Below, piece after piece: positions 1-12,019 of a stretch of DNA of 52,035 nucleotides. Both the position numbers and the translations under genes were made by a program. The stretch's first letter is position 1, and the number at the start of each line of letters is the position of its first letter. Source of the stretch: an uncultured Piscirickettsiaceae bacterium (lineage in GTDB: Bacteria > Pseudomonadota > Gammaproteobacteria > GCF-002020875); the NCBI GenBank assembly GCA_964416755.1, contig CAYQFH010000002.1, positions 1 through 52,035 on the forward strand, written 5' to 3'. The notes beneath the pieces are model-generated. The model saw only the letters and a list, made by a program, of their open reading frames with translations, was not told where the DNA came from and ran no database searches.

Positions 1-1604
1 TGATTACGCGGCAGATAGACTTCATTAATCCCTTTCTCCACATTCACATCAATCACCACTCCTTGCCGATCGCGCTGGGGCTCCAAAAGCGCCACCACAT
101 CCTGCAAGAAGGCACGTGGCGCAAAGCGGCTCATCTGGAAAATCGGTTTTGCATTACTGCGCTGCAAGCGAATGATCTCGGAGATATCCTGAATCCCCCC
201 CTCAACCCGGCTCAGCGGCTCGTCCATCTCCTTTTTCATCAAGCGCCCAACCACCTCATGTGTTCGCGAGATCACCTCTCTCTGGGTCTCGGGAGGAATT
301 TCATCTCCACGTTCCACAAGCTTTTCCAGTACATTGATTGCATCACTGAGAGCTTCTCTACTGCGCTTGACCTTGTAGACCTGCCCGGTGATACCTGCCA
401 ACACATTCCCAATGTTGTGCATGATACTGATCGACATCTCGGCAATACCTGACTGAAATGCAACCATCTGCTCTTTCTCTTCGAGTTCACGCTGTTTGGT
501 AATATCCCTCACCAACATCAAGTGATATCCCTCTTCAGCATGGATCACCAATGGCGTAGAGGAGAGCTGCAAAGAAAGCTGGTTCTCTCTCCGGTCAGAA
601 AACAGCAGTGTCTCTGTCAGGTGCATCTCACCATGTAGGAGCTGAACAACCTGATCTCTGACCGTTTCCGGAAAGAGTGCAGCAAAATCGGGGGAGTCTG
701 TATCCTCTTCAAGCTGGGAGAAGAGTCGTGCAGCCGCCGGATTATAGACCCGTATATCCCCTGTGCTATCCACAACAAACAATCCATCCCCCATATGCTC
801 CATGACTGAGGTGAGTTGCTCATTGCTCTGTTTCAGGTCTCGGGTACGCTCCGTCACTTTCTCTTCCAGGGATGCCAACAACACCTCAAGCTCACCACGC
901 AACTGCATCTCTGCCGCCATACTTTTCTGCAACACTTCCACCCCTTCGCAGAGATGAATCAACTCCTTGGAGGCAAACTCTTGTGGAACAACGGAAATAT
1001 TCCCCCCTGACTCGACGCCACGCAGGTACCGATCCACACGATGAATTGGTTTTACAACCAGTTGTCGCACCATCACGAACAGCATCAATGCCAGAAACAG
1101 AACCGCTCCACCCATCAGGTAGACAAACTGCCGCACCTGCAGTTCAAGCGCATCAAGCTGCTGCTGCAGATCCCAACGCAGAGCCACTATCCCGAAACGT
1201 TCCCCCTCAAAGATGATGGGGCGCTGTGTGGTCATCACCCCTCCCTCCATTAGGGAGGGGCTCTCCTCTCCTTCTGCACAGTGAGGGGCATCTTTGCCCC
1301 AAGTGAGCAGCGGTTGGTTTTGATAGTTGCAGAACTCCGCCCCCACCAGATTGGGGTGAATCTCGATCAATCCCTGCAGTGTTGTCTCCAGAATGGGGAT
1401 ATCTTCACTGAGTAGCGCATCCAGCAGTGTTGTCGAAAACAGTGCAGCCCGCTTATCGACCTCCACCTCTATCTGCTCCAACTGAAGTGTATGCGCAACC
1501 CGCAAGAGCACACTGCCGCCCAGCCAGAGCAGCAGCAGACTGACTCCCAGCATCACCCAGAAAGTCTGGACACCAATCGACCAGCTTTTGGGAGAAAACA
1601 ACAT
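1..1604 (-). CDS. Sensor histidine kinase (TM - HAMP-like - PAS - HisKA/HATPase), 3' end cut by the window edge
   Basis: Absent from the ORF track because it runs off the left edge. My minus-strand translation from ATG 1604-1602 reads MLFSPKSWSIGVQTFWVMLGVSLLLLWLGG (TM), then a second TM followed by VVKPIHRVDRYL (HAMP-like), MGDGLFVVDSTGDIRVYNPAAARLF (PAS) and EMSISIMHNIGNVLAGITG (H-box region). It stays open to base 1. The start lies 15 nt after the stop of the upstream binding-protein gene. Confidence 0.8.
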   Translation of the reverse strand, partial: MLFSPKSWSIGVQTFWVMLGVSLLLLWLGGSVLLRVAHTLQLEQIEVEVDKRAALFSTTLLDALLSEDIPILETTLQGLIEIHPNLVGAEFCNYQNQPLLTWGKDAPHCAEGEESPSLMEGGVMTTQRPIIFEGERFGIVALRWDLQQQLDALELQVRQFVYLMGGAVLFLALMLFVMVRQLVVKPIHRVDRYLRGVESGGNISVVPQEFASKELIHLCEGVEVLQKSMAAEMQLRGELEVLLASLEEKVTERTRDLKQSNEQLTSVMEHMGDGLFVVDSTGDIRVYNPAAARLFSQLEEDTDSPDFAALFPETVRDQVVQLLHGEMHLTETLLFSDRRENQLSLQLSSTPLVIHAEEGYHLMLVRDITKQRELEEKEQMVAFQSGIAEMSISIMHNIGNVLAGITGQVYKVKRSREALSDAINVLEKLVERGDEIPPETQREVISRTHEVVGRLMKKEMDEPLSRVEGGIQDISEIIRLQRSNAKPIFQMSRFAPRAFLQDVVALLEPQRDRQGVVIDVNVEKGINEVYLPRN

Positions 1605-1618
1605 TCGAGTACCAGAAA

Positions 1619-2470
1619 CTATTGGTCGAAAAAGGCTCCGCTATGGTGGATTGCCTTGCGTACGGTGTCATAGGCTGCATCATCTCCAGCGACAAAACCA
1701 TCCTTCTTCAATACTTTCAGCGCCGCCTTGTCATCAAATGCAAGCAAGGTATCCACCAGCGCCTGCTGCTGCACGGAGGGAAGATCTGCACGTCCGGCCC
1801 AGGCCTTGGTCGCCAGTTTGAACTCTTTCAACACGCGGATCTTTCTACCCTTTTTAACCAATTTTTTGAAGGTGCTGGATTTCAATGCACCCGCATCAAA
1901 ATCCCCTTTGGCTACTGCCTCACCAACCCGGTCATGGCGCCCCAAATACTCATACTTCTGCAAGTCTCTCTCGTTGACCCCCGCCTCAGCCAACAACAGT
2001 TGTGCAAAATAGCGACCTATCGTCGATTTTTCACTGCCAAAGGCAAAACGTTTCCCTTTCAGTTCTGCCATCGAAGTGATGGGGCTCTCCTGATGGGCAA
2101 TGATGTAACCACTGCGCATCTTCTTCCCCTTTTTACTCTCCATCGCCAGTAGTGTAACTGCGGGATTCTTCTCTTTGGTCAATACATAGGAGGCAGGTCC
2201 AAAACGGGCAAAGTCAACCTCCCCTGTCGCCAGTTTATTGATGGCCTGCTCATACGTCGGCGAGATTCGAGTATGAATCTTGACCGCCTCTCCCAGCTGT
2301 TGGCTCAAGCGCTGCTCCAGCTGACTCAATAGCGGGCGAAACTGAGTCACTACGGCCGATGCCTTGTCTGACGCATAGAGACCAAAGTTGAGGGTAACCT
2401 CAGCATGCACTGCCCCCCCCTGCAGCATCAACCCCGTCACTGCCGGAGCGATCCACCGTTTAAAATTCAT
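1619..2470 (-). CDS. Periplasmic PhnD/phosphonate-type substrate-binding-like protein, probably sensor-associated
   Basis: 283-aa ORF with an ATG preceded by a GGGAGG SD and the signal peptide MNFKRWIAPAVTGLMLQGGAVHA. Overall resemblance to PhnD-family periplasmic binding proteins. It sits between a receiver gene and a kinase gene. Confidence 0.7.
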   Translation of the reverse strand: MNFKRWIAPAVTGLMLQGGAVHAEVTLNFGLYASDKASAVVTQFRPLLSQLEQRLSQQLGEAVKIHTRISPTYEQAINKLATGEVDFARFGPASYVLTKEKNPAVTLLAMESKKGKKMRSGYIIAHQESPITSMAELKGKRFAFGSEKSTIGRYFAQLLLAEAGVNERDLQKYEYLGRHDRVGEAVAKGDFDAGALKSSTFKKLVKKGRKIRVLKEFKLATKAWAGRADLPSVQQQALVDTLLAFDDKAALKVLKKDGFVAGDDAAYDTVRKAIHHSGAFFDQ

Positions 2471-2526
2471 TATCTCAACCTCCCTTGGGTCTCAAAAAAT
2501 TACACTAAACAGATTCAGATACAACG

Positions 2527-3075
2527 CTAGCCTGCTCTGTCCTTCAATACCCGACTCTCAGCTTCTCTCTCCTGCTCTCTTTGTCGATAGAGTGAAAAAA
2601 GTTCCGCAATCTGGGAGAGCTCTTCAGGAACAAATGGCTTTTTCAAATAGACAAAGTCCATGCCCAGTGCTTCACGAAGCTCGGCTGTGGAATAGTCTGC
2701 ATAGGCAGTGGCAATCACCAGATAGACTGATGGGTCGATTGCCCTGAGTCTGACTCCACACTCTACCCCTGTCATTCCCGGAGGCATTCGCACATCCAGG
2801 AACACGGTGGAAATGGGCTCATCCGCGTCAAACGCCTCACGGAAACAGTCGATCGCCTCTTCTGCAGAGCTTGCCTTGACGATCTTGAATGGTTGGCTGG
2901 GCTGAGTACCGTCACTACCCTCATCCCGATCTTCCGAGAGCAATTGCATCAATGCTGTTGTCTCGATCTGGTGTGTAGATCCCGCCAGGATCTCTTCGTA
3001 GGCGTTCAACACACCTTCGTCATCATCAACCACCATGATTTTTCGGCTAGACAGACTCAAGATTTTTCCATGCAC
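2527..3075 (-). CDS. Stand-alone CheY-like receiver protein (no output domain) with a ~30-aa acidic insertion
   Basis: Receiver motifs VVDDDE, FLDVRMPPGMTG (phospho-Asp), IATAYAD and LKKPF. The start is ambiguous (GTG 3075, TTG 3060 or ATG 3036). Confidence 0.8.
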   Translation of the reverse strand: MHGKILSLSSRKIMVVDDDEGVLNAYEEILAGSTHQIETTALMQLLSEDRDEGSDGTQPSQPFKIVKASSAEEAIDCFREAFDADEPISTVFLDVRMPPGMTGVECGVRLRAIDPSVYLVIATAYADYSTAELREALGMDFVYLKKPFVPEELSQIAELFSLYRQREQEREAESRVLKDRAG

Positions 3076-3129
3076 ACTTAAATTTCAATCAGAACTGTTC
3101 GCAAGCTAAATTTCCACCCTGTCGCAAGG

Positions 3130-3852
3130 TCAACGAATCTTGTGACAAGCGACACAAGGCCCCCGGTCATTATGTGGCATATCCCCGTTCTGTACCTGCT
3201 GTTGGGTAATATCGGGCGGAGGCAGAATAATCAGATCCGGATCCGGCATGGTAAAGCTGCCATCACCAATGGTATGGCAGTCGGTACAGGGGCCACGATA
3301 GGCATGAGGTCGCGGATCTCCCGGCAGGATCATCGGAGCACCCTCGGCCTGAGCAAAACCGAGCTCTAGGCGGGCACGGATGATATAGACCATGCGATGC
3401 ATCACATAACGACCATTACTATCCTTCTCCTCCCCCTTGCGCATCACAGTAACCGCTGCATGGCGCAGATTTTTCACCTGACGACTGGCCTCGACAAAAC
3501 TCTCCAGATCGGTAACCGGCATATCCTTGATTGCGACAATAATATCGCCGCCCAGCATACCGCTCAACGCTGCATTGAGTGTCACTTCATTGATGATCAC
3601 CCCCTGCATGCCACGCGGATAGCCCAGCTGTTGACGCAGTTCGGCAGTCAGTTTCATCACGTCCATCCCCTGCCAGTGCGCTTCATAAAGCTTCATCCTG
3701 GAGGGAATGAAATTGCCGCTGCCGGGTGCAGCCAGATTGTAGACCGGATCGTTGGGTTGCTGCAGCGATGCTGAACCCGTGACCGCACCAGCCAGTGACA
3801 CAGAAGCCAGTGAAAGTGCAGCACCCATCAGCAGAGGTTGAAGTTTCACCAT
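3130..3852 (-). CDS. mamP: MamP-like protein: N-terminal hydrophobic segment, PDZ domain, two magnetochrome-type c-haem motifs
   Basis: Hydrophobic N-terminus MVKLQPLLMGAALSLASVSLAGA and a PDZ-like core GVIINEVTLNAALSGMLGGDIIVAIKDMPVTDLESF. Two copies of PH-x(2,3)-RGPC-x2-CH follow: RPHAYRGPCTDCH (CTDCH codons 3274-3288) and MPHNDRGPCVACH (CVACH codons 3142-3156). The ORF-track start at 3879 is a TTG; the ATG at 3852 lies 4 nt after the mamO-like stop. Confidence 0.75.
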   Translation of the reverse strand: MVKLQPLLMGAALSLASVSLAGAVTGSASLQQPNDPVYNLAAPGSGNFIPSRMKLYEAHWQGMDVMKLTAELRQQLGYPRGMQGVIINEVTLNAALSGMLGGDIIVAIKDMPVTDLESFVEASRQVKNLRHAAVTVMRKGEEKDSNGRYVMHRMVYIIRARLELGFAQAEGAPMILPGDPRPHAYRGPCTDCHTIGDGSFTMPDPDLIILPPPDITQQQVQNGDMPHNDRGPCVACHKIR

Positions 3853-3856
3853 AATC

Positions 3857-5860
3857 TTACTGCAATAACAGGAGTGCAAACGCGATCACCAGCATGATCC
3901 CGATAAAGGTCCAGCGCTGCTGGGTCACTGTGGTCCGCTCCTGGAAGTAGTAACCGAGGAAACCACCACCATAGGTGCTGGGCACCAGAATCATGGCCAG
4001 CGTGAGCGGAGTCTGCCACTCAAAGGAGCCAATGGAGACACCATAACCCAGAGAGACCAGTGTTGCAGTCAGAGAGGCCCAGAAGACCATCACAATGGCA
4101 TTGGCTCGTGCATTCTCGGCAGAAAGCCCCGCATATTTGCGCTGGAAGTACTGCTCCACTACGCCACCACTCACCCCCAACAGACCGGTCAAAATGCCAA
4201 GAGGGCCACCCATGATGGGGGAAGTTGCCCAACCGCGCCGTACGTCGACCTCTTCCGAGTCAAGCAGGAAATTATCGATACGCTCCTCTTGATTCCTGGC
4301 CACCGGGCGCACATGGGATTCACGCTCTTGCAGATCTCCGCGCAACTCAAAATAGACCACCAGCGCCATTGCCAGCGCAAAGAGACCGAGTAAATAGCCG
4401 ATCACATGATCATAGAGATTATGTCCGAGGAAGTAGCCCAATACCGCACCCACGATGGTAGCCGGTAACAGCTCCTTGATACGGCGGGTAATGATCACCC
4501 CGGCAAACAGCTGGCGCAGGGCGGCAATACCGTAGGTGAAGAGGTTGGTGATGTAGATTACCGGACGCACCATGAAGACACCGTAACCAAACACCAACAT
4601 CATTCCGGCCACGGCGACAATGCCCCCTCCCATTGGTACCAGTGTACCCACTGCACCCGCAAAGACTCCCAACAATACCAGCCCGACAATGGCATCCAGC
4701 TTATAGAAGCCGAGATCAAAGCTGGAGTCATGCTCCAGATCCATCAAGCTGACCGAGTCCCCCGGTGCTCCGATATGCGCTACCCGCTGTTGCCCTTCTG
4801 CGGGCTCTGCGGTCACTGCAGCAACATTCTGAGCCAGTAGTGCTCCGGGATTGTTCTGATTCTGCTGATCCTGAATTGCAGCCAACTTCTCCTGACGGGT
4901 CTGCTGACGGGCCTGATCCCACCATGCAGCGGCCATCCCCTTGGCTGTACCCGACTGCATCGCACTATTTCCATTTGGAGTAATGGTTCCATTTTCAGCT
5001 GGCGCAACCGGTTTGGCAATCTTCTTCAACCCTTTGGAGGTCAGATCCACCACATCCTGAAAATGGGCACGAATCACGTGGGCAGGGACTACAAAACCTT
5101 CCGCCATCCCGCCTTGTCCCTGCAACAACAGACCGATCCCAACCAACTCTGCCTGCTGGTTGATTACCGCGCCACCGCCCTGCTCCCAACGCACCATCGC
5201 ATTGGTCTGCATCAGATGGGTTATCGGGTTGCCTGCAACCTGGCGTACCTGATCATTCAACTGCAAGATTCCAGGGTTGGCAACCACAGCCCCTTGCACA
5301 TCCTTGCCGATCGCAATCAACTGACTCTGCAGCGGAGCATTGCGGCTGTCTGCCAATTTCAGGTAGAGAAAACGATCATTGGTAACCATCTTCAGCAACA
5401 CCAGATCATGCGCTGGATGCTTCTTTACCACCTCGGTCTTGTAGAGACGAATACCGCTGCCACCCGCCACCTGAATCTGCAACTGATCCGGGTTATTTAC
5501 ACTGTGCAAAGTGGTAATGACATAACCATCCGGGTGCACTAAAACACCTGAAGAAACAACACCAGCACCTTGATTTACAATGGAAACAACCGCTGACCCA
5601 GCTGGAGTAACCAGATCAGTCTGTCCACCGGCAATATTCAAGCCACCCGCAAGACCACTCTGCGGTGTAGTATCCGAGGAGAACGATGAGAAGAAGTTGC
5701 TGACCGCATAGGATTCAACCTCATACTCTTCCAGATCAACATCATAGAGGTAGAGCGCCCAACCAAATAGCATCAGTGCTGCCAATGGCAACAGTGCCAG
5801 CGGGATCTGCCACGGCCTTTTACAGAAGACGATTTTGTTATCTAATCCTGCGAGTTTCAT
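3857..5860 (-). CDS. mamO: MamO-like fusion: TM anchor, degenerate trypsin/HtrA-like domain, C-terminal TauE/SafE-type transporter domain
   Basis: 667 aa. The protease-like region keeps His (YVITTLHSV) and Asp (HPAHDLVLLKM), but the GNSGG nucleophile box reads EQGGGAV (Ser replaced by Gly). The C-terminal ~270 aa are multi-TM with TauE-like glycine-rich helices (PMGGGIVAVAGMMLVFGYG, GILTGLLGVSGG). Confidence 0.75.
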   Translation of the reverse strand: MKLAGLDNKIVFCKRPWQIPLALLPLAALMLFGWALYLYDVDLEEYEVESYAVSNFFSSFSSDTTPQSGLAGGLNIAGGQTDLVTPAGSAVVSIVNQGAGVVSSGVLVHPDGYVITTLHSVNNPDQLQIQVAGGSGIRLYKTEVVKKHPAHDLVLLKMVTNDRFLYLKLADSRNAPLQSQLIAIGKDVQGAVVANPGILQLNDQVRQVAGNPITHLMQTNAMVRWEQGGGAVINQQAELVGIGLLLQGQGGMAEGFVVPAHVIRAHFQDVVDLTSKGLKKIAKPVAPAENGTITPNGNSAMQSGTAKGMAAAWWDQARQQTRQEKLAAIQDQQNQNNPGALLAQNVAAVTAEPAEGQQRVAHIGAPGDSVSLMDLEHDSSFDLGFYKLDAIVGLVLLGVFAGAVGTLVPMGGGIVAVAGMMLVFGYGVFMVRPVIYITNLFTYGIAALRQLFAGVIITRRIKELLPATIVGAVLGYFLGHNLYDHVIGYLLGLFALAMALVVYFELRGDLQERESHVRPVARNQEERIDNFLLDSEEVDVRRGWATSPIMGGPLGILTGLLGVSGGVVEQYFQRKYAGLSAENARANAIVMVFWASLTATLVSLGYGVSIGSFEWQTPLTLAMILVPSTYGGGFLGYYFQERTTVTQQRWTFIGIMLVIAFALLLLQ

Positions 5861-5890
5861 CTACTACACCATGATTTACGCTATCACCAA

Positions 5891-5933
5891 GAACAGACAA
5901 AGCCCCTGCAAGGTTGTACTCCTCAGCAGGGGC
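5891..5933 (-). terminator. GC-rich hairpin plus T-rich tail between the mamC-like and mamO-like genes (possible partial terminator/attenuator)
   Basis: The minus strand reads GCCCCTGC-(16 nt)-GCAGGGGC followed by TTTGTCTGTTCTT. The 8-bp perfect stem is at 5902-5909 / 5926-5933. Confidence 0.35.
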
Positions 5934-5959
5934 AGAGCGACTAAAACGACAACCGAATA

Positions 5960-6325
5960 TTAAGACTCAACGCCTTCAGCAAGAATTTCGTCCGCCTCAT
6001 CATTGTCACGCATGCGCAGCTCCAGCTGCTCCATGCCACGATCATAGGCATACTTGGCACCGGTTGCAGCAACCAGCGCAGTCCCCAGAGAGACCGCCAA
6101 ACCACCACCTACCGCACCAGCGGCCACTGCACTGAAAGCCGTTGCCAGCCCAGCACCCAGCCCCTCTTTACCAGTGTCATAGATTGCATCCTTGGTCTCT
6201 ACCAGACCATCACGGTGATCCTTGATATTCCTGGCCGCTGCACCAGAAGCACCAACCACCGCACCGAGCACACCCACACCGGAGGCGCTCTGTGCCAGAT
6301 ATTGCGCCAAATTAAATGCTGCCAT
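5960..6325 (-). CDS. mamC: MamC (Mms13/Mam12)-like small two-helix magnetosome membrane protein homologue
   Basis: 121 aa, with an ATG preceded by a GAGGGAGAA SD. It aligns by eye over nearly its full length with MamC as I remember it: [16 protein letters not shown], then [40 protein letters not shown], then an acidic tail. Confidence 0.75.
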   Translation of the reverse strand: [121 protein letters not shown]

Positions 6326-6361
6326 CTTCGTTCTCCCTCAATCTTCCAACAAGGATATATT

Positions 6362-6390
6362 GTTATAAATACTTCGACTTCCGTACACAA
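6362..6390 (-). promoter_or_regulatory. Candidate sigma-70 promoter upstream of the mamC-like gene
   Basis: Minus strand TTGTGT-(17 nt)-TATAAC. The -10 is at 6362-6367 and the -35 at 6385-6390 in plus-strand coordinates. The -35 is weak. Confidence 0.25.
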
Positions 6391-6451
6391 TCGAAAGTCT
6401 GAAGATCGATTAAACCATGTCCAAATGGAGTTGGCAAATCAATCTGTTTGC

Positions 6452-7048
6452 TCAGAAAAGCATCAGGTCATCTGCATTACGGTTACCGTACGCTTTGGCC
6501 TCCTGAATGGCCTCCTCTTTGGTCGCGCCACGCAGCAGCGCATCAAACAGCACCTTGCCCTCTTCCATGGTGAAAGAGCTGTAAACCTGATTTTGTAGCT
6601 CTTTCCACTCATTCGGGTTGAACAAGCGCTGCTGATCATTCACCAGATCGGCAGTGTTCTCCAGACTGCCTGCGATGTGGTTTAGCTGTTGGGTCAGACG
6701 ATCATAGAACTGAAAGCTGATGACTGCACTTTTCAGATCGCTGATCACCAGATCACACTTGTTATCGAGCCGATCCAGCATCTCCTGATACTGAGTACCA
6801 CAGCTCTCAGGCACTTCACCATCCACATCGCGCGCTGTCTGCTTGATTTCCTGCATATAGCGATTCATATTGGTGAAGGCCTCGATCAACGAAGTGATCG
6901 ACTCATCACCGGTAGACATGGAGTATTCGATGGCTGAGACTCCGACACGAAACATTCGTACCGTCTCTCGAACTTGACTCCAATCGAGGTCTGGCTTCTC
7001 AGCGGATGACGGAACGGATCGCAACTCACTCATGAATAATGCACTCAA
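6452..7048 (-). CDS. Soluble hypothetical protein with a CheZ-like F-Q-x-x-D-R-L-T-Q-Q helix motif
   Basis: 198-aa ORF (TTG 7048; first ATG at 7033) with no TM segment. The ISFQFYDRLTQQLNHI segment is reminiscent of the CheZ DFQDLTGQ active-site helix. The function is not established. Confidence 0.5.
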   Translation of the reverse strand: MSALFMSELRSVPSSAEKPDLDWSQVRETVRMFRVGVSAIEYSMSTGDESITSLIEAFTNMNRYMQEIKQTARDVDGEVPESCGTQYQEMLDRLDNKCDLVISDLKSAVISFQFYDRLTQQLNHIAGSLENTADLVNDQQRLFNPNEWKELQNQVYSSFTMEEGKVLFDALLRGATKEEAIQEAKAYGNRNADDLMLF

Positions 7049-7105
7049 AGAAAAACAATTAAGAATCTTCTTATTCTATCACGCCCGTTTTTCACTGCAC
7101 AGCGG

Positions 7106-7519
7106 TTATCGACGTCCAAACAGCCGGGAAAGCATTCTGAATGGGTGGCGAATCGCATAGGTTGTACTCTTCTTCTTCAGCAGTTTGAACTCCACCGCAG
7201 TCAACATATAGATGATCTCGCGGCTCAGGGCCTTTACCTCCAACAGCGCCTCGTTGGCCTCCTCTTTTCGACCGTGCTTATGGGAGCGAATCACCCGCCT
7301 CACCGCTTGGTGAAACTGTTTATGGTCACGCTCCAACTGCTGAATCTCGACATTGTTGCCAAACTCCCGCAATCCCTCCTCATAGAGCCATACCCCCAGC
7401 GGACAGTCCTCATGGGAGTCCACCTCAAGATGCTGCAGATGGTGTGTATCCAGCAACTCCTCCAGCTGCAGTTCCCAGGAGAGATGCACCAACCGCATAT
7501 AACCCAAATCAGAAATCAT
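7106..7519 (-). CDS. Stand-alone CZB (chemoreceptor zinc-binding) domain protein
   Basis: It matches the remembered CZB pattern exactly. HLSW (H-x2-W) is followed by 23 aa, then CPLGVW (C-x-L-G-x-W), then 21 aa, then HKQFH (H-x3-H). Its ATG overlaps the stop of the upstream ATPase-like gene (ATGA at 7516-7519). Confidence 0.85.
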   Translation of the reverse strand: MISDLGYMRLVHLSWELQLEELLDTHHLQHLEVDSHEDCPLGVWLYEEGLREFGNNVEIQQLERDHKQFHQAVRRVIRSHKHGRKEEANEALLEVKALSREIIYMLTAVEFKLLKKKSTTYAIRHPFRMLSRLFGRR

Positions 7520-8556
7520 GAAAGTCCCTTTCTCTTGAATAAAACCATGGAACGAATCTCCAGACGGTAACGCAATTCGCCACTGATCCTCCCCTCAAGA
7601 TGGCTGGAGAAGCTACGCTCAATCACCAGATCTGGAGTCAACTGCAAACAATAGATGGTCTTCCCTCCCTGGGCACTGCTCTGCAGAATGCGTGCACGCC
7701 GCCTCGACTTCTCATCAAATACGATATCTTCCGGCCGGATCAGCAGTTCAAGACGTGTTCCGTCCGGCAACCCGAAACCGGTGGGATGGTCAATCATGCC
7801 GAGCTCTGTATCGAGGCGCAGTTCATCATGCACTACCCCCTTGACCAGCACACCCGCTCCCATATAACGGGCCACACTCCGCTTCTGTGGTGTCGCATAC
7901 AGCTCCTGCGGTGCGCCCCACTGCAGCAGAATTTCGTTCTCCATCACACCGGCAAAATCACCCGCAAAAAGTGCGCCTTGCCGCACTGCCGTGGAAAGCA
8001 AAATACCGCAACCAAAATGTTCCACGATCCCCTCCAGACGATCCAGCAGGCGATAACGTGCCTCCACGCCAAGATCGAGCAGCGGCTCCTCCAGCAGCAG
8101 CAATACCGGACGGGTTACCAGTGCACGGGCAATCAACAGATAGCGTCTGGTCTCTTCATCCAGGACATCGGGGTAGCTGGCAGCATAATCCGCCAACTTC
8201 AACCCGGAAAGCACCTTCATACAGTGCTCACGCTTGTTGGAAATCCTGAAGTTCTGCAACACCAGACGCAGATTATCCAAAATAGTAAGATGTGGGTAGA
8301 AGCTTCCATCTCTCGGCACCCAGGCAATGGGGCGCTCCCAAGGGGGGGGAATTTTGCCACTCCGTGCAATCAGATCCCCACGCAGAAAGATCTCCCCCTC
8401 TTCAAACCCTTTCAATCCGGCGATCAGGCGGAGCAGTTCCCCTTTACCACTCTCCTCCTCCCCTAGAAGCAGACCGAGCTTACGCTCGGGAAGCGCCAGA
8501 GAAACTCTGGCACCGGTTGGCATTTGCAGTTGATGCAGCTTGAGTAGGTCAGCCAT
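7516..8556 (-). CDS. FbpC/PotA-family ABC ATPase-like protein with degenerate catalytic motifs and a C-terminal TOBE-like domain
   Basis: Collinear with ABC importer ATPases, but each motif is altered. Walker A is GEEESGKG (not GxxGxGKS/T), the signature is LDEETRRY (not LSGGQ), Walker B is LLLLEEP (not hhhhDEP), and the H-loop His is absent (LLSTAVRQ). The C-terminal LLIRPEDIVF block resembles FbpC. The ATG at 8556 overlaps the permease stop by 8 nt; the ORF-track GTG start is at 8580. Confidence 0.8.
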   Translation of the reverse strand: MADLLKLHQLQMPTGARVSLALPERKLGLLLGEEESGKGELLRLIAGLKGFEEGEIFLRGDLIARSGKIPPPWERPIAWVPRDGSFYPHLTILDNLRLVLQNFRISNKREHCMKVLSGLKLADYAASYPDVLDEETRRYLLIARALVTRPVLLLLEEPLLDLGVEARYRLLDRLEGIVEHFGCGILLSTAVRQGALFAGDFAGVMENEILLQWGAPQELYATPQKRSVARYMGAGVLVKGVVHDELRLDTELGMIDHPTGFGLPDGTRLELLIRPEDIVFDEKSRRRARILQSSAQGGKTIYCLQLTPDLVIERSFSSHLEGRISGELRYRLEIRSMVLFKRKGLS

Positions 8557-9295
8557 AGATAAAGGGCCCAAGTGCAACACCCAATGGCGTATAGAGCAGT
8601 GAAATCATCATCACCAGCAGCGTCCCTCGTGTCTTCATCGACACACGCCCTGCGCTTATCTGTTCAGGCAAAACCCGTGGCAATCTCCTGTAACTGCCCA
8701 GCAAGAGTGTCAGCGAAAGAGAGAGCAGCAGAACCCACTGCAGCAGCAACAATGGCTCTGGCTGTTCCAGAAGATAGAGCACCACCGGCAATGTCTCCAC
8801 CCCCAGCCGCTCAGCCACCCCGAAATCAAAATTGACCACCAACAGGGAGGCACCAAACACCCAAACCATCAACCGCAATAGCAGTGGTCGAACCACCATC
8901 GCCGGAGCCACACGATCAACCAACCCCAATTGGTAGCGCTGTTCACGCCCTACAGCCGCTGTGACTGCAAACAGTTTGACTGCAAACAGGGTTGAGAGGG
9001 CCACAGTTGAGAAAAGCAGCACAAAGAGGAGCGCAATACGCCCTTGGAAGAGTTCAATCCAGTGCAGCGGTACCCCTTCTGCAACCAATCTGGCCGGGGT
9101 AAGCAGCGCACTGAACACCGCCCCCCAGGCGATCCAGCGCATCAGCGTGCTGATTCTGCGGGTCACCAACATCCAGCCAATCCACCCTGAAAGCGGAAAT
9201 ACCAGGAGAGAGAGCGCCGCAGTTAATAACAGAGACTCCAGCAGCGGGGCAACGGCTGGAGGAAATTCAAGAAGCGGAAAATAGGACAGACTCAT
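8549..9295 (-). CDS. Multi-TM ABC permease-like membrane protein (divergent)
   Basis: 248 aa with about 6 hydrophobic segments and a weak EAA-loop-like stretch, FGVAERLGVETLPVV. Translationally coupled to the ATPase-like gene. Confidence 0.55.
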   Translation of the reverse strand: MSLSYFPLLEFPPAVAPLLESLLLTAALSLLVFPLSGWIGWMLVTRRISTLMRWIAWGAVFSALLTPARLVAEGVPLHWIELFQGRIALLFVLLFSTVALSTLFAVKLFAVTAAVGREQRYQLGLVDRVAPAMVVRPLLLRLMVWVFGASLLVVNFDFGVAERLGVETLPVVLYLLEQPEPLLLLQWVLLLSLSLTLLLGSYRRLPRVLPEQISAGRVSMKTRGTLLVMMISLLYTPLGVALGPFIYG

Positions 9296-9325
9296 CCGCC
9301 CTATTCTACCGCATCCATCTGGTGC

Positions 9326-9520
9326 TTAAAGTGAGTAGTTGTCTCTCAATCCCAATTTATTGCGATATGCCTCAGACTGATAGTGATCTCTTCGCTGACA
9401 ACAGAGGTTCCACAATCGAGAAACCTTGTAGAGAGAGAAAGAGAGCACCCCACTGAGAACTACTTTGGCGACAACCAGTACAGAAATTCCGAGAGAGGCA
9501 GCAATCAACATCATGATCAT
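9326..9520 (-). CDS. Small (64-aa) membrane protein, first gene after the Fur-box promoter
   Basis: The ATG at 9520 has an AAGGAG SD 7 nt upstream. The sequence is MIMMLIAASLGISVLVVAKVVLSGVLSFSLY followed by a basic/Cys tail. The longer ORF-track start at 9628 would overlap fur. Confidence 0.5.
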   Translation of the reverse strand: MIMMLIAASLGISVLVVAKVVLSGVLSFSLYKVSRLWNLCCQRRDHYQSEAYRNKLGLRDNYSL

Positions 9521-9557
9521 TATGGTACTCCTTACCTTGTTTGAACCAGTAAGGAGC

Positions 9558-9585
9558 ATTATATGCAAATGATAACGATTATCAA
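9558..9585 (-). promoter_or_regulatory. Sigma-70-type promoter with an embedded Fur box
   Basis: The minus strand reads TTGATA-(16 nt)-TATAAT. The 19-mer at 9565-9583, gcaaatgataacgattatc, matches the Fur consensus GATAATGATAATCATTATC at 15/19. The core palindrome TGATAAC-G-ATTATCA (9570-9584) lies across the -35/spacer. Confidence 0.7.
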
Positions 9586-9593
9586 TAGATATT

Positions 9594-10028
9594 TTACTCT
9601 TTTTTCTGGCAACTTCCGCAGACACCATAGAGCGTCAATGCATGGTCAGAGATCTGGAAAGAGTAATTGTCAGCAATTTCATGCTGCAGCTTCTCTATCT
9701 TGGCCTCAAAGAACTCCTCCACTGCACCACAGCTGGTACAGAGCAAATGGTCATGATGATCTCCACGATCCAACTCGAACACCGAGTGGCCGGTCTCGAA
9801 ATTGTGCCGCTTGAGTATTCCAGCCTGCTCGAACTGGGTCAATACGCGATAGACAGTGGCCAGTCCGATCTCCTCCTCTTTTTCGATGAGCGTACGGTAG
9901 ACCTCTTCTGCACTGAGGTGAATCTGTTCGCTCTCCTCCAGTAGCGCCAAAATACGCATACGGGGATGCGTTACCTTCAGGCCAGCACTCTTCAGTTGCT
10001 CTTTTTCAGATAGCGATTGATCAATCAT
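9594..10028 (-). CDS. fur: Ferric uptake regulator Fur
   Basis: 144 aa with LKVTHPRMRIL, ATVYRVLTQFEQAGI, the HHDHLLC-x2-CG motif and a C-terminal CGSC. A full-length Fur-family match. Confidence 0.95.
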   Translation of the reverse strand: MIDQSLSEKEQLKSAGLKVTHPRMRILALLEESEQIHLSAEEVYRTLIEKEEEIGLATVYRVLTQFEQAGILKRHNFETGHSVFELDRGDHHDHLLCTSCGAVEEFFEAKIEKLQHEIADNYSFQISDHALTLYGVCGSCQKKE

Positions 10029-10037
10029 CCCCCCCCC
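10029..10037 (-). repeat. Homopolymer G9 (minus strand) between the SD and the ATG of fur
   Basis: The plus strand has 9 consecutive C at 10029-10037. The minus strand reads AGGAAGGGGGGGGGATG. Confidence 0.9.
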
Positions 10038-10080
10038 TTCCTATTTTCATTCATGGTATCTATACAAAACAGAACAACTG

Positions 10081-11283
10081 TCAGAAGCGGATCGCTGTAC
10101 TGACCGGCTGCTCACCCTGTCTGATTTGTTGCTTTATGTCATCAATTTTATGTTGAAGCTGCAGTGTAGCATGCTTGACGATCTGATTGACCTCTGCCGA
10201 AGTGGTCACTGCATGTAATTTACTATTCAGCGCCTCCAACTGGCGACCATTGCTCTTTCTCACTTCACCAATCTCATAGCGCAACTCTTCCACAATACTC
10301 TTTTCACGACCATCCCCTCGCTGCAGTACCCCCTCATCCGCAGTCACCGGTATCCGTTGCTGGGAGAGCTGCTCCAACTGTTCAGCAAGCTGCTGCTGCG
10401 TCTGCTCAACAACTGCAAGTTGCTGCCTTAGCGGTTCCAGCAACGGTCGTAATTGCAACTCGGCAGGCACTTGCATGGAATCTATCTCATCTGTTGCTCC
10501 ACTGCCCTCAATCTGCTGCTGCATCTTCTGCATCAGGGCTGACTGTTCCGCAATCTGTCTGCTCTGCTCCAGAACCAACTGTTGAGTCTGCTTCAGTGCT
10601 CCCTGCAGTTGCTGCATTAATTGCGCCTGTTCAGCCTGCTGCTGTCTCGAATCATCAACAGCCTGTCTTGACTGTGCCAGCTCTTCATTCAACTGAGAAA
10701 AGCGTTGCTCGACCCCCCTGGAGATTTCGGCAGATTGCCGGGGTGCCACAGGTTGCTGTTGCCGGTTCAGTTCATTCAACTGCTGTTGCAGCTGAGCGAC
10801 TCTGTCCTCCATCTCCCGCAATTGCAGAGATTGAACCTCAGTCGAGTCACTTCCTCCCCCCTGTTCCAACTGATCCATACGCTTACCGATCCGGATCTGC
10901 TCCCGGCGGCTATTGGCCACCAGCTTGCCAATCTCACCCCGCATTTCATCCAGCGTAGAGGGAACCCCATCAATACGCTCTTTTAGCAACGCGACTTCAG
11001 ACTCCAACTGTTTTACCTCATGCTCAGAGAGGCTGGGAACGGGAACCACAACGGGTCGGGGCACTTCGCTCATCTCCTCAAGCGGCTGCTTAATCAGAAA
11101 TTCGGAAGTGACCGGCTCAATCACCGGTTCAGGCACACTATCCCCCTGCTGTATCAGCTGACCCAACGCATCGCCCTTAAAACAGCGATCCTCCCCAGGA
11201 CGATAGATGGCTTCTCCCAAATGGTCACCACTCACCTTAATACGGTCAAGCACCTGATTGCTAATCGATGAATCTACTTTCAT
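10081..11283 (-). CDS. Gln/Glu-rich coiled-coil protein of unknown function
   Basis: About 400 aa of heptad-like Q/E/L-rich sequence (LQQQLNELNRQQQ, QQQAEQAQLMQQLQG) after a ~60-aa N-terminal globular segment. The ATG at 11283 is preferred over the ORF-track GTG at 11373. Confidence 0.6.
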   Translation of the reverse strand: MKVDSSISNQVLDRIKVSGDHLGEAIYRPGEDRCFKGDALGQLIQQGDSVPEPVIEPVTSEFLIKQPLEEMSEVPRPVVVPVPSLSEHEVKQLESEVALLKERIDGVPSTLDEMRGEIGKLVANSRREQIRIGKRMDQLEQGGGSDSTEVQSLQLREMEDRVAQLQQQLNELNRQQQPVAPRQSAEISRGVEQRFSQLNEELAQSRQAVDDSRQQQAEQAQLMQQLQGALKQTQQLVLEQSRQIAEQSALMQKMQQQIEGSGATDEIDSMQVPAELQLRPLLEPLRQQLAVVEQTQQQLAEQLEQLSQQRIPVTADEGVLQRGDGREKSIVEELRYEIGEVRKSNGRQLEALNSKLHAVTTSAEVNQIVKHATLQLQHKIDDIKQQIRQGEQPVSTAIRF

Positions 11284-11433
11284 GACGTCCAGTATAAAAG
11301 GAGCCCTCTGACAGCACAACAGAACAACTGGATAAGGAAACGCCTGTTTTGCAAACTGTCTCTTCAGATCCACAGCATATGGACGCTAAATTCAGAGAAC
11401 CAACAGAAGAAAAACATCAATGGGACAAAACCA

Positions 11434-11628
11434 ATGAAACAGACAAAGAATTCTTCCCTCTCTCAAAAACACGAGATTCACTGGAATGCTGTTGGTGCTG
11501 GACTGGTCACTGCTGCCTTTATCTACCCTGAACAGCAGACCATTCTACTCTCCATGGGTGGCTCCAGCTTTATAACGGGAGTTATTCAGAAGCTGAGCAA
11601 GCGGAGACAACAGTCTGCCATTCAGTAA
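11434..11628 (+). CDS. Possible small hypothetical protein
   Basis: 64-aa ORF ending 40 nt before a strong terminator. The SD is weak and no family was recognised. Confidence 0.3.
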   Translation: MKQTKNSSLSQKHEIHWNAVGAGLVTAAFIYPEQQTILLSMGGSSFITGVIQKLSKRRQQSAIQ

Positions 11629-11667
11629 CCACACTACACCATGCAATAAACAGTAATTACTGCGTTC

Positions 11668-11706
11668 AAAAAAGCCCCCGGCTACACTGTAACCGGGGGC
11701 TTTTTT
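11668..11706. terminator. Bidirectional rho-independent terminator
   Basis: AAAAAA-GCCCCCGG-(11 nt)-CCGGGGGC-TTTTTT lying between convergent genes. Confidence 0.8.
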
Positions 11707-11740
11707 CAGCTGAGCCAATCGAGAACCGAGTACTCACAGC

Positions 11741-12019
11741 CTACCCAAACTCGTGCTCCTCATCAAAGATCTCATCGTGATGAGCACCTGCATGGCTGAC
11801 ACGATAAACCAGATAGATCAGATAAGGGGCTGCAACCAGAAGAATGACTCCAACATTCAGATTACCGGGAATCAGGCCATCATAGAAGCGGTCCAGATTG
11901 ATCCAGCCGGTCACAATCGACACGCCAATCGGGATCACAAACAGGCCAATCGAGAACCACACCAGAAAACGCAACCACTCCGTCCCTAACCACTCCGCAC
12001 AACAGATCACTCTATTCAT
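11741..12019 (-). CDS. Small two-TM membrane protein with an acidic/His-rich C-terminal tail
   Basis: The ATG at 12019 is preceded by AAGGTGAG. There are two hydrophobic helices, and the tail reads HAGAHHDEIFDEEHEFG. Confidence 0.55.
   Translation of the reverse strand: MNRVICCAEWLGTEWLRFLVWFSIGLFVIPIGVSIVTGWINLDRFYDGLIPGNLNVGVILLVAAPYLIYLVYRVSHAGAHHDEIFDEEHEFG

Follow-up and report, generated by a model that had tools for sequence, protein, structure and literature searches.

The closest described relative of the protein treated here is MamO of Magnetospirillum magneticum AMB-1, a membrane-anchored magnetosome protein with a trypsin-like domain, a linker and a TauE domain, encoded next to mamP. 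The structures of its protease domain (5HM9, apo; 5HMA, Ni-bound) are locked in an inactive state, the predicted nucleophile T225 is dispensable, with T225A giving no phenotype, and mutation of the His-Asp pair causes only conditional defects in crystal maturation (PMC4794232). Two histidines, H148 in loop LC and H263 in helix 2, bind Ni2+ in the crystal and are indispensable for magnetite nucleation (PMC4794232). The marks of the MamO family according to Hershey et al. 2016 are a degenerate catalytic triad, a residue other than glycine at chymotrypsin position 193, a bulky tryptophan in loop L1 and the di-histidine pair, and the residue at position 193 and the L1 tryptophan are the structural reasons why MamO cannot catalyse (PMC4794232). 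Here, we describe the architecture, residue equivalences, fold, clade membership, purifying selection and neighbourhood of a gene located at positions 3857..5860 on the minus strand of contig CAYQFH010000002.1 from an uncultured Piscirickettsiaceae bacterium. The window is the whole stretch analysed, the first 52,035 nucleotides (52 kb) of this contig. The gene product is very likely an orthologue of the magnetosome protein MamO that acts as MamO does in AMB-1.

The gene is a single uninterrupted open reading frame (ORF) of 667 amino acids plus stop codon, with an ATG start and zero internal stops, and its length is in keeping with the 660-680 amino acids of its homologs. In Pfam searches, residues 104-242 match Trypsin_2 (E 7.5e-16) and residues 394-662 match TauE (PF01925; E 4.9e-26, 92 bits, profile positions 1-236 of 237). 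An N-terminal anchor, the trypsin-like domain and the C-terminal TauE domain are found on one polypeptide, as in MamO. The NCBIfam MamO model (NF040961) is covered from position 13 to its last, 648, with a score of 532 bits (E 1.4e-159), about nine times the score of the next family, the runners-up being MamE (60 bits) and DegP/HtrA (54-57 bits). The two best matches in a phmmer search against the PDB are the AMB-1 MamO structures 5HMA (E 9.9e-42) and 5HM9 (E 8.2e-41), both at about 146 bits, as compared to about 50 bits for DegP. Matches of this strength to the MamO structures and the MamO model are far from anything expected by chance. Residues 97-271 align without gaps to positions 17-191 of chain 5hma_A, with 78 of 175 residues identical (45%), while the identity to AMB-1 MamO is 33-36% over the full length.

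We inferred a phylogeny from 81 protease domains, comprising every trypsin-like ORF from 59 related loci and DegP, DegQ and DegS from E. coli. In this tree, which was built by a distance method only (neighbour-joining), a MamO clade of 52 domains that includes the AMB-1 crystal sequence is recovered in 100 of 100 bootstraps, with MamE and the Deg proteins outside. The window protein, which is encoded by the only trypsin-like ORF in the window, falls inside this clade. Consistently, in an AlphaFold2 model built from 27 homologs, in which the protease domain has predicted local distance difference test (pLDDT) scores of 73-88, the closest match in the PDB identified by Foldseek is 5hma_A, with a template modelling (TM) score of 0.91 (target-normalised) and a root-mean-square deviation (rmsd) of 1.8 Å over 187 columns. 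The second is 5hm9_A, and DegS domains follow with TM scores of at most 0.80 and rmsd values of 3-6 Å. A first-pass annotation made from the sequence alone, which gave no strand, had called the protein MamO-like with a multi-transmembrane TauE/SafE-type C-terminal half, and had proposed superposition on the MamO protease domain as a check, with phylogenetic grouping among ordinary DegP/TauE proteins as one outcome that would speak against it. Profiles, fold and tree all bear out this assignment, and the four motifs that it quoted (TTLHSV, AHDLVLLK, WEQGGGAV and FVVPAHVIRAH) are all found in the 667-residue protein.

The trypsin/HtrA-fold domain (residues 97-271, 5048..5572; coordinates within mamO are all on the minus strand) is degenerate. 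The histidine at the catalytic position, H119 (5504..5506; AMB-1 H116), is kept in the motif TTLHSV at residues 116-121, and a histidine occupies this column in 51 of the 52 MamO-class sequences from the related loci. The aspartate, D152 (5405-5407; AMB-1 D149), is located in AHDLVLLK at residues 150-157, within the gapless alignment to 5HMA. The nucleophile box is WEQGGGAV (residues 225-232, 5165..5188), where W225 lies in loop L1, E226 is at position 193, and G228 (5177-5179) is at position 195, the nucleophile position, at which AMB-1 MamO has a threonine (T225). The protein shares with AMB-1 MamO the WEQxGG box, the L1 tryptophan, the glutamate at position 193, the His-Asp pair and the di-histidine pair, and differs from it in having glycine rather than threonine at the nucleophile position, histidine rather than isoleucine at residue 148 and histidine rather than glutamine at residue 261. 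Features of an active HtrA protease are lacking, since the box is EQGGG and there is no PDZ domain.

The nucleophile column varies across the family. A set of 62 representatives of the family was taken from 1.84 billion cluster representatives, and in this set the residue is serine in 19, asparagine in 19, glycine in 11, threonine in seven and alanine in three, whereas G-N-S-G-G is present at the nucleophile-box columns in all 29 MamE and Deg sequences. Glycine is confined to the clade of the window protein within this set of 62, and alternates with serine in close relatives (L003/P0010). The class signature columns read H/H/D/W/E/Q/x/G/G/H in MamO, as opposed to H/x/D/Q/G/N/S/G/G/F in MamE and Deg. 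The free variation at the nucleophile column agrees with the absence of a phenotype for T225A in AMB-1. By analogy with AMB-1 MamO, the protease-fold domain is predicted to be proteolytically inert, as G228 offers no side chain, a glutamate replaces the glycine at position 193 and W225 occupies L1. The first-pass annotation had considered proteolysis very unlikely because of the glycine. The glycine is confirmed, and E226 and W225 are probable further inactivating features. Its wording that serine had been replaced by glycine holds only relative to the HtrA proteases, as serine, asparagine, threonine and glycine all occur within MamO.

Other trypsin-fold relatives share less with the window protein. 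MamE has the same trypsin-2/HtrA fold, is likewise specific to magnetosomes and has the His-Asp pair, but it differs in that its GNSGG box is intact, in having magnetochrome and PDZ domains, and in lacking both a TauE domain and a di-histidine pair. DegP, DegQ and DegS share the fold, and the histidine and aspartate of their triads align, but they are active serine proteases with PDZ domains and only about 25% identity.

The di-histidine site is conserved in the window protein. In the gapless alignment to 5HMA, H151 (5408-5410) on loop LC corresponds to the metal ligand H148 of AMB-1, and H266 (5063..5065) on helix 2, modelled as a helix at residues 260-267, corresponds to H263. Both residues are invariant in the alignment of 27 full-length homologs (A1), on which all statements about invariance are based here, while the nucleophile column is less than 90% conserved. 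Among the 62 representatives, histidine is present in 53 at the H151 column and in 52 at the H266 column. MamE and Deg proteins mostly have an aliphatic residue at the first column, most commonly leucine, and phenylalanine, leucine, methionine or isoleucine at the second; in DegP, DegQ and DegS the residues are serine or threonine and leucine or isoleucine, respectively. Because the alignment is gapless and the model fits 5HMA with the TM score given above, H151 and H266 are expected to be juxtaposed in the fold.

The first-pass annotation had suggested the histidine preceding the aspartate (HD) as a candidate metal ligand, and this residue is H151, which falls exactly on AMB-1 H148. It had also pointed to the histidines of FVVPAHVIRAH (residues 256-266), of which H266 stands as the counterpart of H263, while H261 is probably not a ligand. 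We considered H261 as a third ligand and rejected it, since it aligns with AMB-1 Q258 and is five residues away from H266, on a different face of the helix. In AMB-1, Q258 is a fluorophore-labelling site located 12.8 Å from the metal (PMC4794232). An extra histidine, H148 of the window protein (5417..5419), precedes H151 by three residues in the sequence HPAHD, at the position of Ile145 in AMB-1. A histidine is present at this column in seven of the 52 locus sequences and in 17 of the 62 representatives, nearly all of which belong to the clade of the window protein and its sister clade. That this residue serves as a third metal ligand is speculative.

A gammaproteobacterial metagenome-assembled genome (MAG), nTSbin2 (L040), encodes two MamO-class protease domains located about 9.5 kb apart (459-1380 and 9964-11845). 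Both have an alanine at the H266 column and one of them also has a serine at the H151 column. From these residues, L040 appears to be a MamO lineage in which the di-histidine site was lost.

Outside the protease-like domain, the protein starts with a membrane anchor at residues 18-38 (5747..5809), seen as a helix in the AlphaFold2 model and as a hydropathy window at residues 17-42. Just ahead of the anchor, and outside the annotated domains, there is a family-invariant F-C-x3-W motif (F12, C13 and W17; 5810-5827). The linker (residues 276-390, 4691..5035) is mostly disordered, with pLDDT below 50 at residues 276-318 and 336-386. It includes a modelled helix at residues 311-336 with the invariant residues W313, W314 and A317, and the near-invariant residues D374 and H377 are located just before the TauE domain. 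The helix corresponds to a second family-invariant motif outside the annotated domains, A-A-W-W-x2-A, with W313 and W314 at 4919-4924.

The TauE/TSUP-type polytopic membrane domain (residues 394-662, 3875..4681) is modelled as two helix bundles separated by a charged loop at residues 508-547, with pLDDT of about 80-90, and no solved relative of it was found in the PDB by sequence. The C-terminal 270 residues match the profile of the TauE/SafE (TSUP) anion transporters over its whole length. However, an ordinary TSUP protein has about 250 amino acids and stands alone, with no protease-like domain attached, unlike the MamO fusion. Conversely, LimO from the R9 region of AMB-1 shares the metal-binding pseudo-protease domain but lacks TauE, whereas the window gene encodes the full fusion. 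LimO can supply the metal-binding function in trans in AMB-1 (PMC4794232). Short MamO-like ORFs of about 290 amino acids are seen in Magnetospirillum loci, but none is present in the window.

The gene is under purifying selection. In comparisons with orthologs on three related contigs (71-81% amino acid identity), the gene as a whole has a ratio of nonsynonymous to synonymous substitution rates (dN/dS) of 0.08-0.13. Taken separately, the protease-like domain gives 0.07-0.10 and the TauE domain 0.04-0.10, although all these ratios are rough because dS exceeds 1 and synonymous sites are near saturation. The most conserved part is the TauE domain, with 90% amino acid identity to L001 and a dN/dS of 0.04. 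Strong constraint on a domain that is predicted to be catalytically dead argues that a non-catalytic function is maintained.

The function that we propose is modelled on the work in AMB-1. The N-terminal helix would anchor MamO in the membrane, with the trypsin/HtrA-fold domain facing the magnetosome lumen, which derives from the periplasm. There, the pseudo-protease domain may bind iron via H151 and H266 and promote magnetite nucleation. H119 and D152, as a hydrogen-bonded pair, probably steady loop LC from the face opposite the metal site without taking part in catalysis. In AMB-1, MamO as a whole is required to switch on the true protease MamE, which in turn cuts MamO in the linker between the domains, and the window protein would act likewise. 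The AMB-1 linker holds a MamE cleavage site between TQTV and AAGS, and no counterpart is recognisable in the poorly conserved linker of the window protein. The flexible linker is predicted to lead to an eight-helix TauE/TSUP transporter-like domain. In AMB-1, the TauE domain is required for biomineralization, and a control of solutes that affect MamE is the speculation of the authors (PMC4794232). The product of the adjoining mamP gene would be a magnetochrome Fe(II) oxidase.

The mamO gene is located between two other magnetosome genes on the minus strand. The mamC gene (5960..6325) is placed 99 nucleotides upstream and scores 130 bits against the NCBIfam MamC model (cutoff 100). Downstream, the mamP frame (3130..3879) encodes a PDZ domain and two magnetochrome CXXCH motifs (Pfam MCR and PDZ_2), and its NCBIfam MamP score of 299.6 bits is just short of the cutoff of 300. 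From the junction sequence, the likely ATG of mamP is at 3850-3852, four bases past the mamO stop codon. As the three genes are co-oriented and separated by these short distances, they probably form a co-expressed module for iron handling and nucleation. No mam genes other than mamC, mamO and mamP were found in the 52-kb window, and MamN, which is encoded next after MamP in relatives, was not detected there by tblastn. Upstream of mamC are genes for a 198-residue protein, a CZB-domain protein, an ABC ATPase with a putative permease, fur and a Gln-rich coiled-coil protein. Farther upstream, the window contains genes for two sensor kinases and an NtrC-type regulator, relA, ygiQ, tonB-exbBD, ubiA and tadA, and additionally guaA, guaB, a pyruvate:ferredoxin oxidoreductase gene, hypF and a gene for a TonB-dependent receptor. 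The RelA-type synthetase and PpiD encoded in the window fit a gamma- or betaproteobacterial host, the former by way of the RelA/SpoT duplication, which we take to link RelA-type synthetases to such hosts.

MAGs that carry the label “Piscirickettsiaceae” or “Gammaproteobacteria” are the closest genomes, at 71-81% identity, and samples of the oxygen-minimum-zone type were the source of related contigs. The mamC-mamO-mamP unit is present in at least nine related contigs. The larger block of coiled-coil, fur, small-ORF, membrane, ABC and CZB genes, followed in some by the 198-residue ORF and then by mamC, mamO and mamP, is kept in L001-L004 and L062-L066 and spans positions 3130-11373 in the window. 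The genes 3' of mamP are variable. L001 and L062-L064 have mamN there, the window and L065/L066 share a module that encodes a response regulator, a binding protein and a kinase, and L003 has nothing at this place; farther on are proS and the ilv genes. In the sister clade (L034 “Sedimenticola sp.” and L037), the unit is placed amid genes for feoB, an MsrQ-like protein, citrate synthase and malic enzyme. L001 has part of a MamK gene, its C-terminal half, at the edge of the locus (1-567), 9.4 kb upstream of mamO, where the window variant has sensor kinases instead. A metagenome contig (L072, 125-10519) with a MamK that is 83% identical encodes MamB-MamS-MamT-MamD/Mms6-MamH-MamI-MamE-(523 aa)-MamK. 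In the MamE of this contig, the GNSGG box is intact and three CXXCH motifs are present. Judging from these contigs, the lineage appears to have a normal magnetosome gene set including an active partner protease, MamE, and mamC-mamO-mamP(-mamN) appears to be a distal or detached sub-cluster of it.

Some observations weigh against an orthologue that works as in AMB-1. Neither mamE, mamB, mamM, mamK, mamI nor mamQ is present anywhere in the 52-kb window. The NCBIfam MamO score of 532 bits is below the curated equivalog cutoff of 800. Moreover, the H148A/H263A double mutant of AMB-1 MamO still binds metal in vitro (PMC4794232). The cutoff, which the window protein misses, is a threshold for annotation and not a biological feature. 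It excludes everything beyond Magnetospirillum-like sequences, which explains why the public homologs P0010, P0016, P0017 and P0027 are named “TSUP family transporter” by NCBI.

The window gene also departs from AMB-1 mamO in its location, as it forms a unit of three genes that includes mamC and is not part of a mamAB operon, and in its host, which is labelled gammaproteobacterial. A more far-reaching explanation is that the metal site was enlarged in this clade, with H148 in an HxxHD motif on loop LC adding to H151 and H266 and with all side-chain bulk lost at the nucleophile position (Gly228). According to this explanation, a mamC-mamO-mamP(-mamN) unit moved from mamAB to a place between the fur, ABC and CZB genes and a two-component module, which could subject nucleation to iron- or zinc-responsive control of its own. 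A more radical version holds that the triad operates without other magnetosome machinery. We regard this alternative as unlikely. The glycine at the nucleophile position, the extra H148 in HPAHD and the detached three-gene arrangement appear, from the sequences compared, to be minor clade-specific traits.

It is improbable, in our view, that mamC-mamO-mamP, placed in the core chromosome beside fur, an ABC transporter and a CZB sensor and apart from any mamAB-type operon, works outside magnetosomes altogether, for example in periplasmic iron oxidation or handling under the control of Fur. This would fit the absence of any other mam gene from the 52 kb and flanks composed of housekeeping genes (guaAB, relA, ubiA, tadA and pyruvate:ferredoxin oxidoreductase) and iron genes (fur, tonB-exbBD and the TonB-dependent receptor), as well as the genes for feoB, MsrQ-like protein, citrate synthase and malic enzyme around the L034/L037 unit and the lack of mamK within 10-40 kb upstream in the common variant of the window and L065/L066. 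The strong purifying selection seen in every domain is compatible with this explanation and with a role in magnetosomes alike. However, mamK is located on the same contig as mamO in the close relative L001, and the contig with the 83%-identical MamK carries MamB-S-T-D-H-I-E-K, so that a split magnetosome gene cluster is the simpler explanation. Furthermore, to our knowledge, MamC is known solely as a magnetosome-membrane protein.

It is hardly credible that the domain is still an active protease, with an unconventional nucleophile or with water that the His-Asp pair activates. In favour of this, H119 and D152 are kept and some clade members (L003/P0010 and P0012) have a serine at the nucleophile position, but the glycine in the window protein has no side chain, Glu226 replaces Gly193 of the oxyanion hole, W225 is placed in L1 as in the inactive AMB-1 structure, and a column varying among glycine, serine, asparagine, threonine and alanine is atypical of a catalytic residue, which is serine in 29 of 29 MamE and Deg sequences. 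The chance is equally slight that the gene is on its way to becoming a pseudogene, left over from a magnetosome island that was lost and now decaying, as might be suspected from its isolation from the rest of the cluster in the window and from the replacement of the mamN gene of L001 and L062-L064 by the response regulator, binding protein and kinase, because the frame of 667 residues is intact, dN/dS against the three orthologs is low, all family-invariant residues are present and synteny is kept across at least nine contigs.

An orthologue of MamO in such a host has precedents. In 2016, the family was called specific to the Alphaproteobacteria, and the two cultured gammaproteobacterial strains then available were reported to have MamE duplicates without the di-histidine motif (PMC4794232). 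A survey from 2022 treats the MamO proteins of Pseudomonadota and Nitrospirota as monophyletic, and mam genes have already been published from gammaproteobacterial MAGs, so the window gene adds one more member to a family that is known. No match came from a literature search for “Piscirickettsiaceae” together with “magnetosome”. The protein is a typical MamO from a poorly annotated gammaproteobacterial lineage, and all the features pointed out in the first-pass annotation belong to the published family signature. This signature, with the di-histidine site, the L1 tryptophan, a residue other than glycine at position 193 and a dispensable nucleophile, is found without change in lineages that bear the labels Gammaproteobacteria, Piscirickettsiaceae and Sedimenticola. 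The variable nucleophile (glycine, serine, asparagine, threonine or alanine) next to a conserved di-histidine pair gives an independent, sequence-based confirmation of the mutagenesis in AMB-1. Because of the shortfall against the MamO model (532 versus 800 bits), magnetosome genes can escape notice in MAGs of this kind. Beyond annotation, the importance of the gene is little.

The remaining features of the window are of minor interest. Directly after mamP, there is a signalling module that consists of a receiver-only response regulator (ORF at 2527-3075), a PhnD-like binding protein (ORF at 1619-2470) and a sensor kinase (1-1640, minus strand, frame 0), which contains membrane, HAMP/PAS-like and H-box regions and continues beyond the left edge of the window. 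A degraded gene was considered for the seemingly ORF-free positions 1-1600 and rejected, as these are occupied by the open frame of the kinase. In a scan of positions 2400-7200, promoter and terminator sites were no more frequent than in shuffled sequence, and Rfam gave no match at gathering thresholds anywhere in the window.

The 198-residue ORF between the CZB gene and mamC (6452-7048, minus strand) has no match in Pfam or NCBIfam. It is present with 67-81% identity in L001-L004 and L065/L066 and absent from L062/L063, and it could encode an undescribed magnetosome-associated protein. The Gln/Glu-rich coiled-coil protein upstream of fur (10081-11373, minus strand) is about 400-430 amino acids long and conserved mainly at both ends. 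Such coiled-coil proteins have no family match and are reminiscent of MamJ-like or chain-organising proteins. In L001, genes for two more acidic coiled-coil proteins, a rubredoxin and a CheY-like protein are located at 2246-5440, between the coiled-coil protein and mamK.

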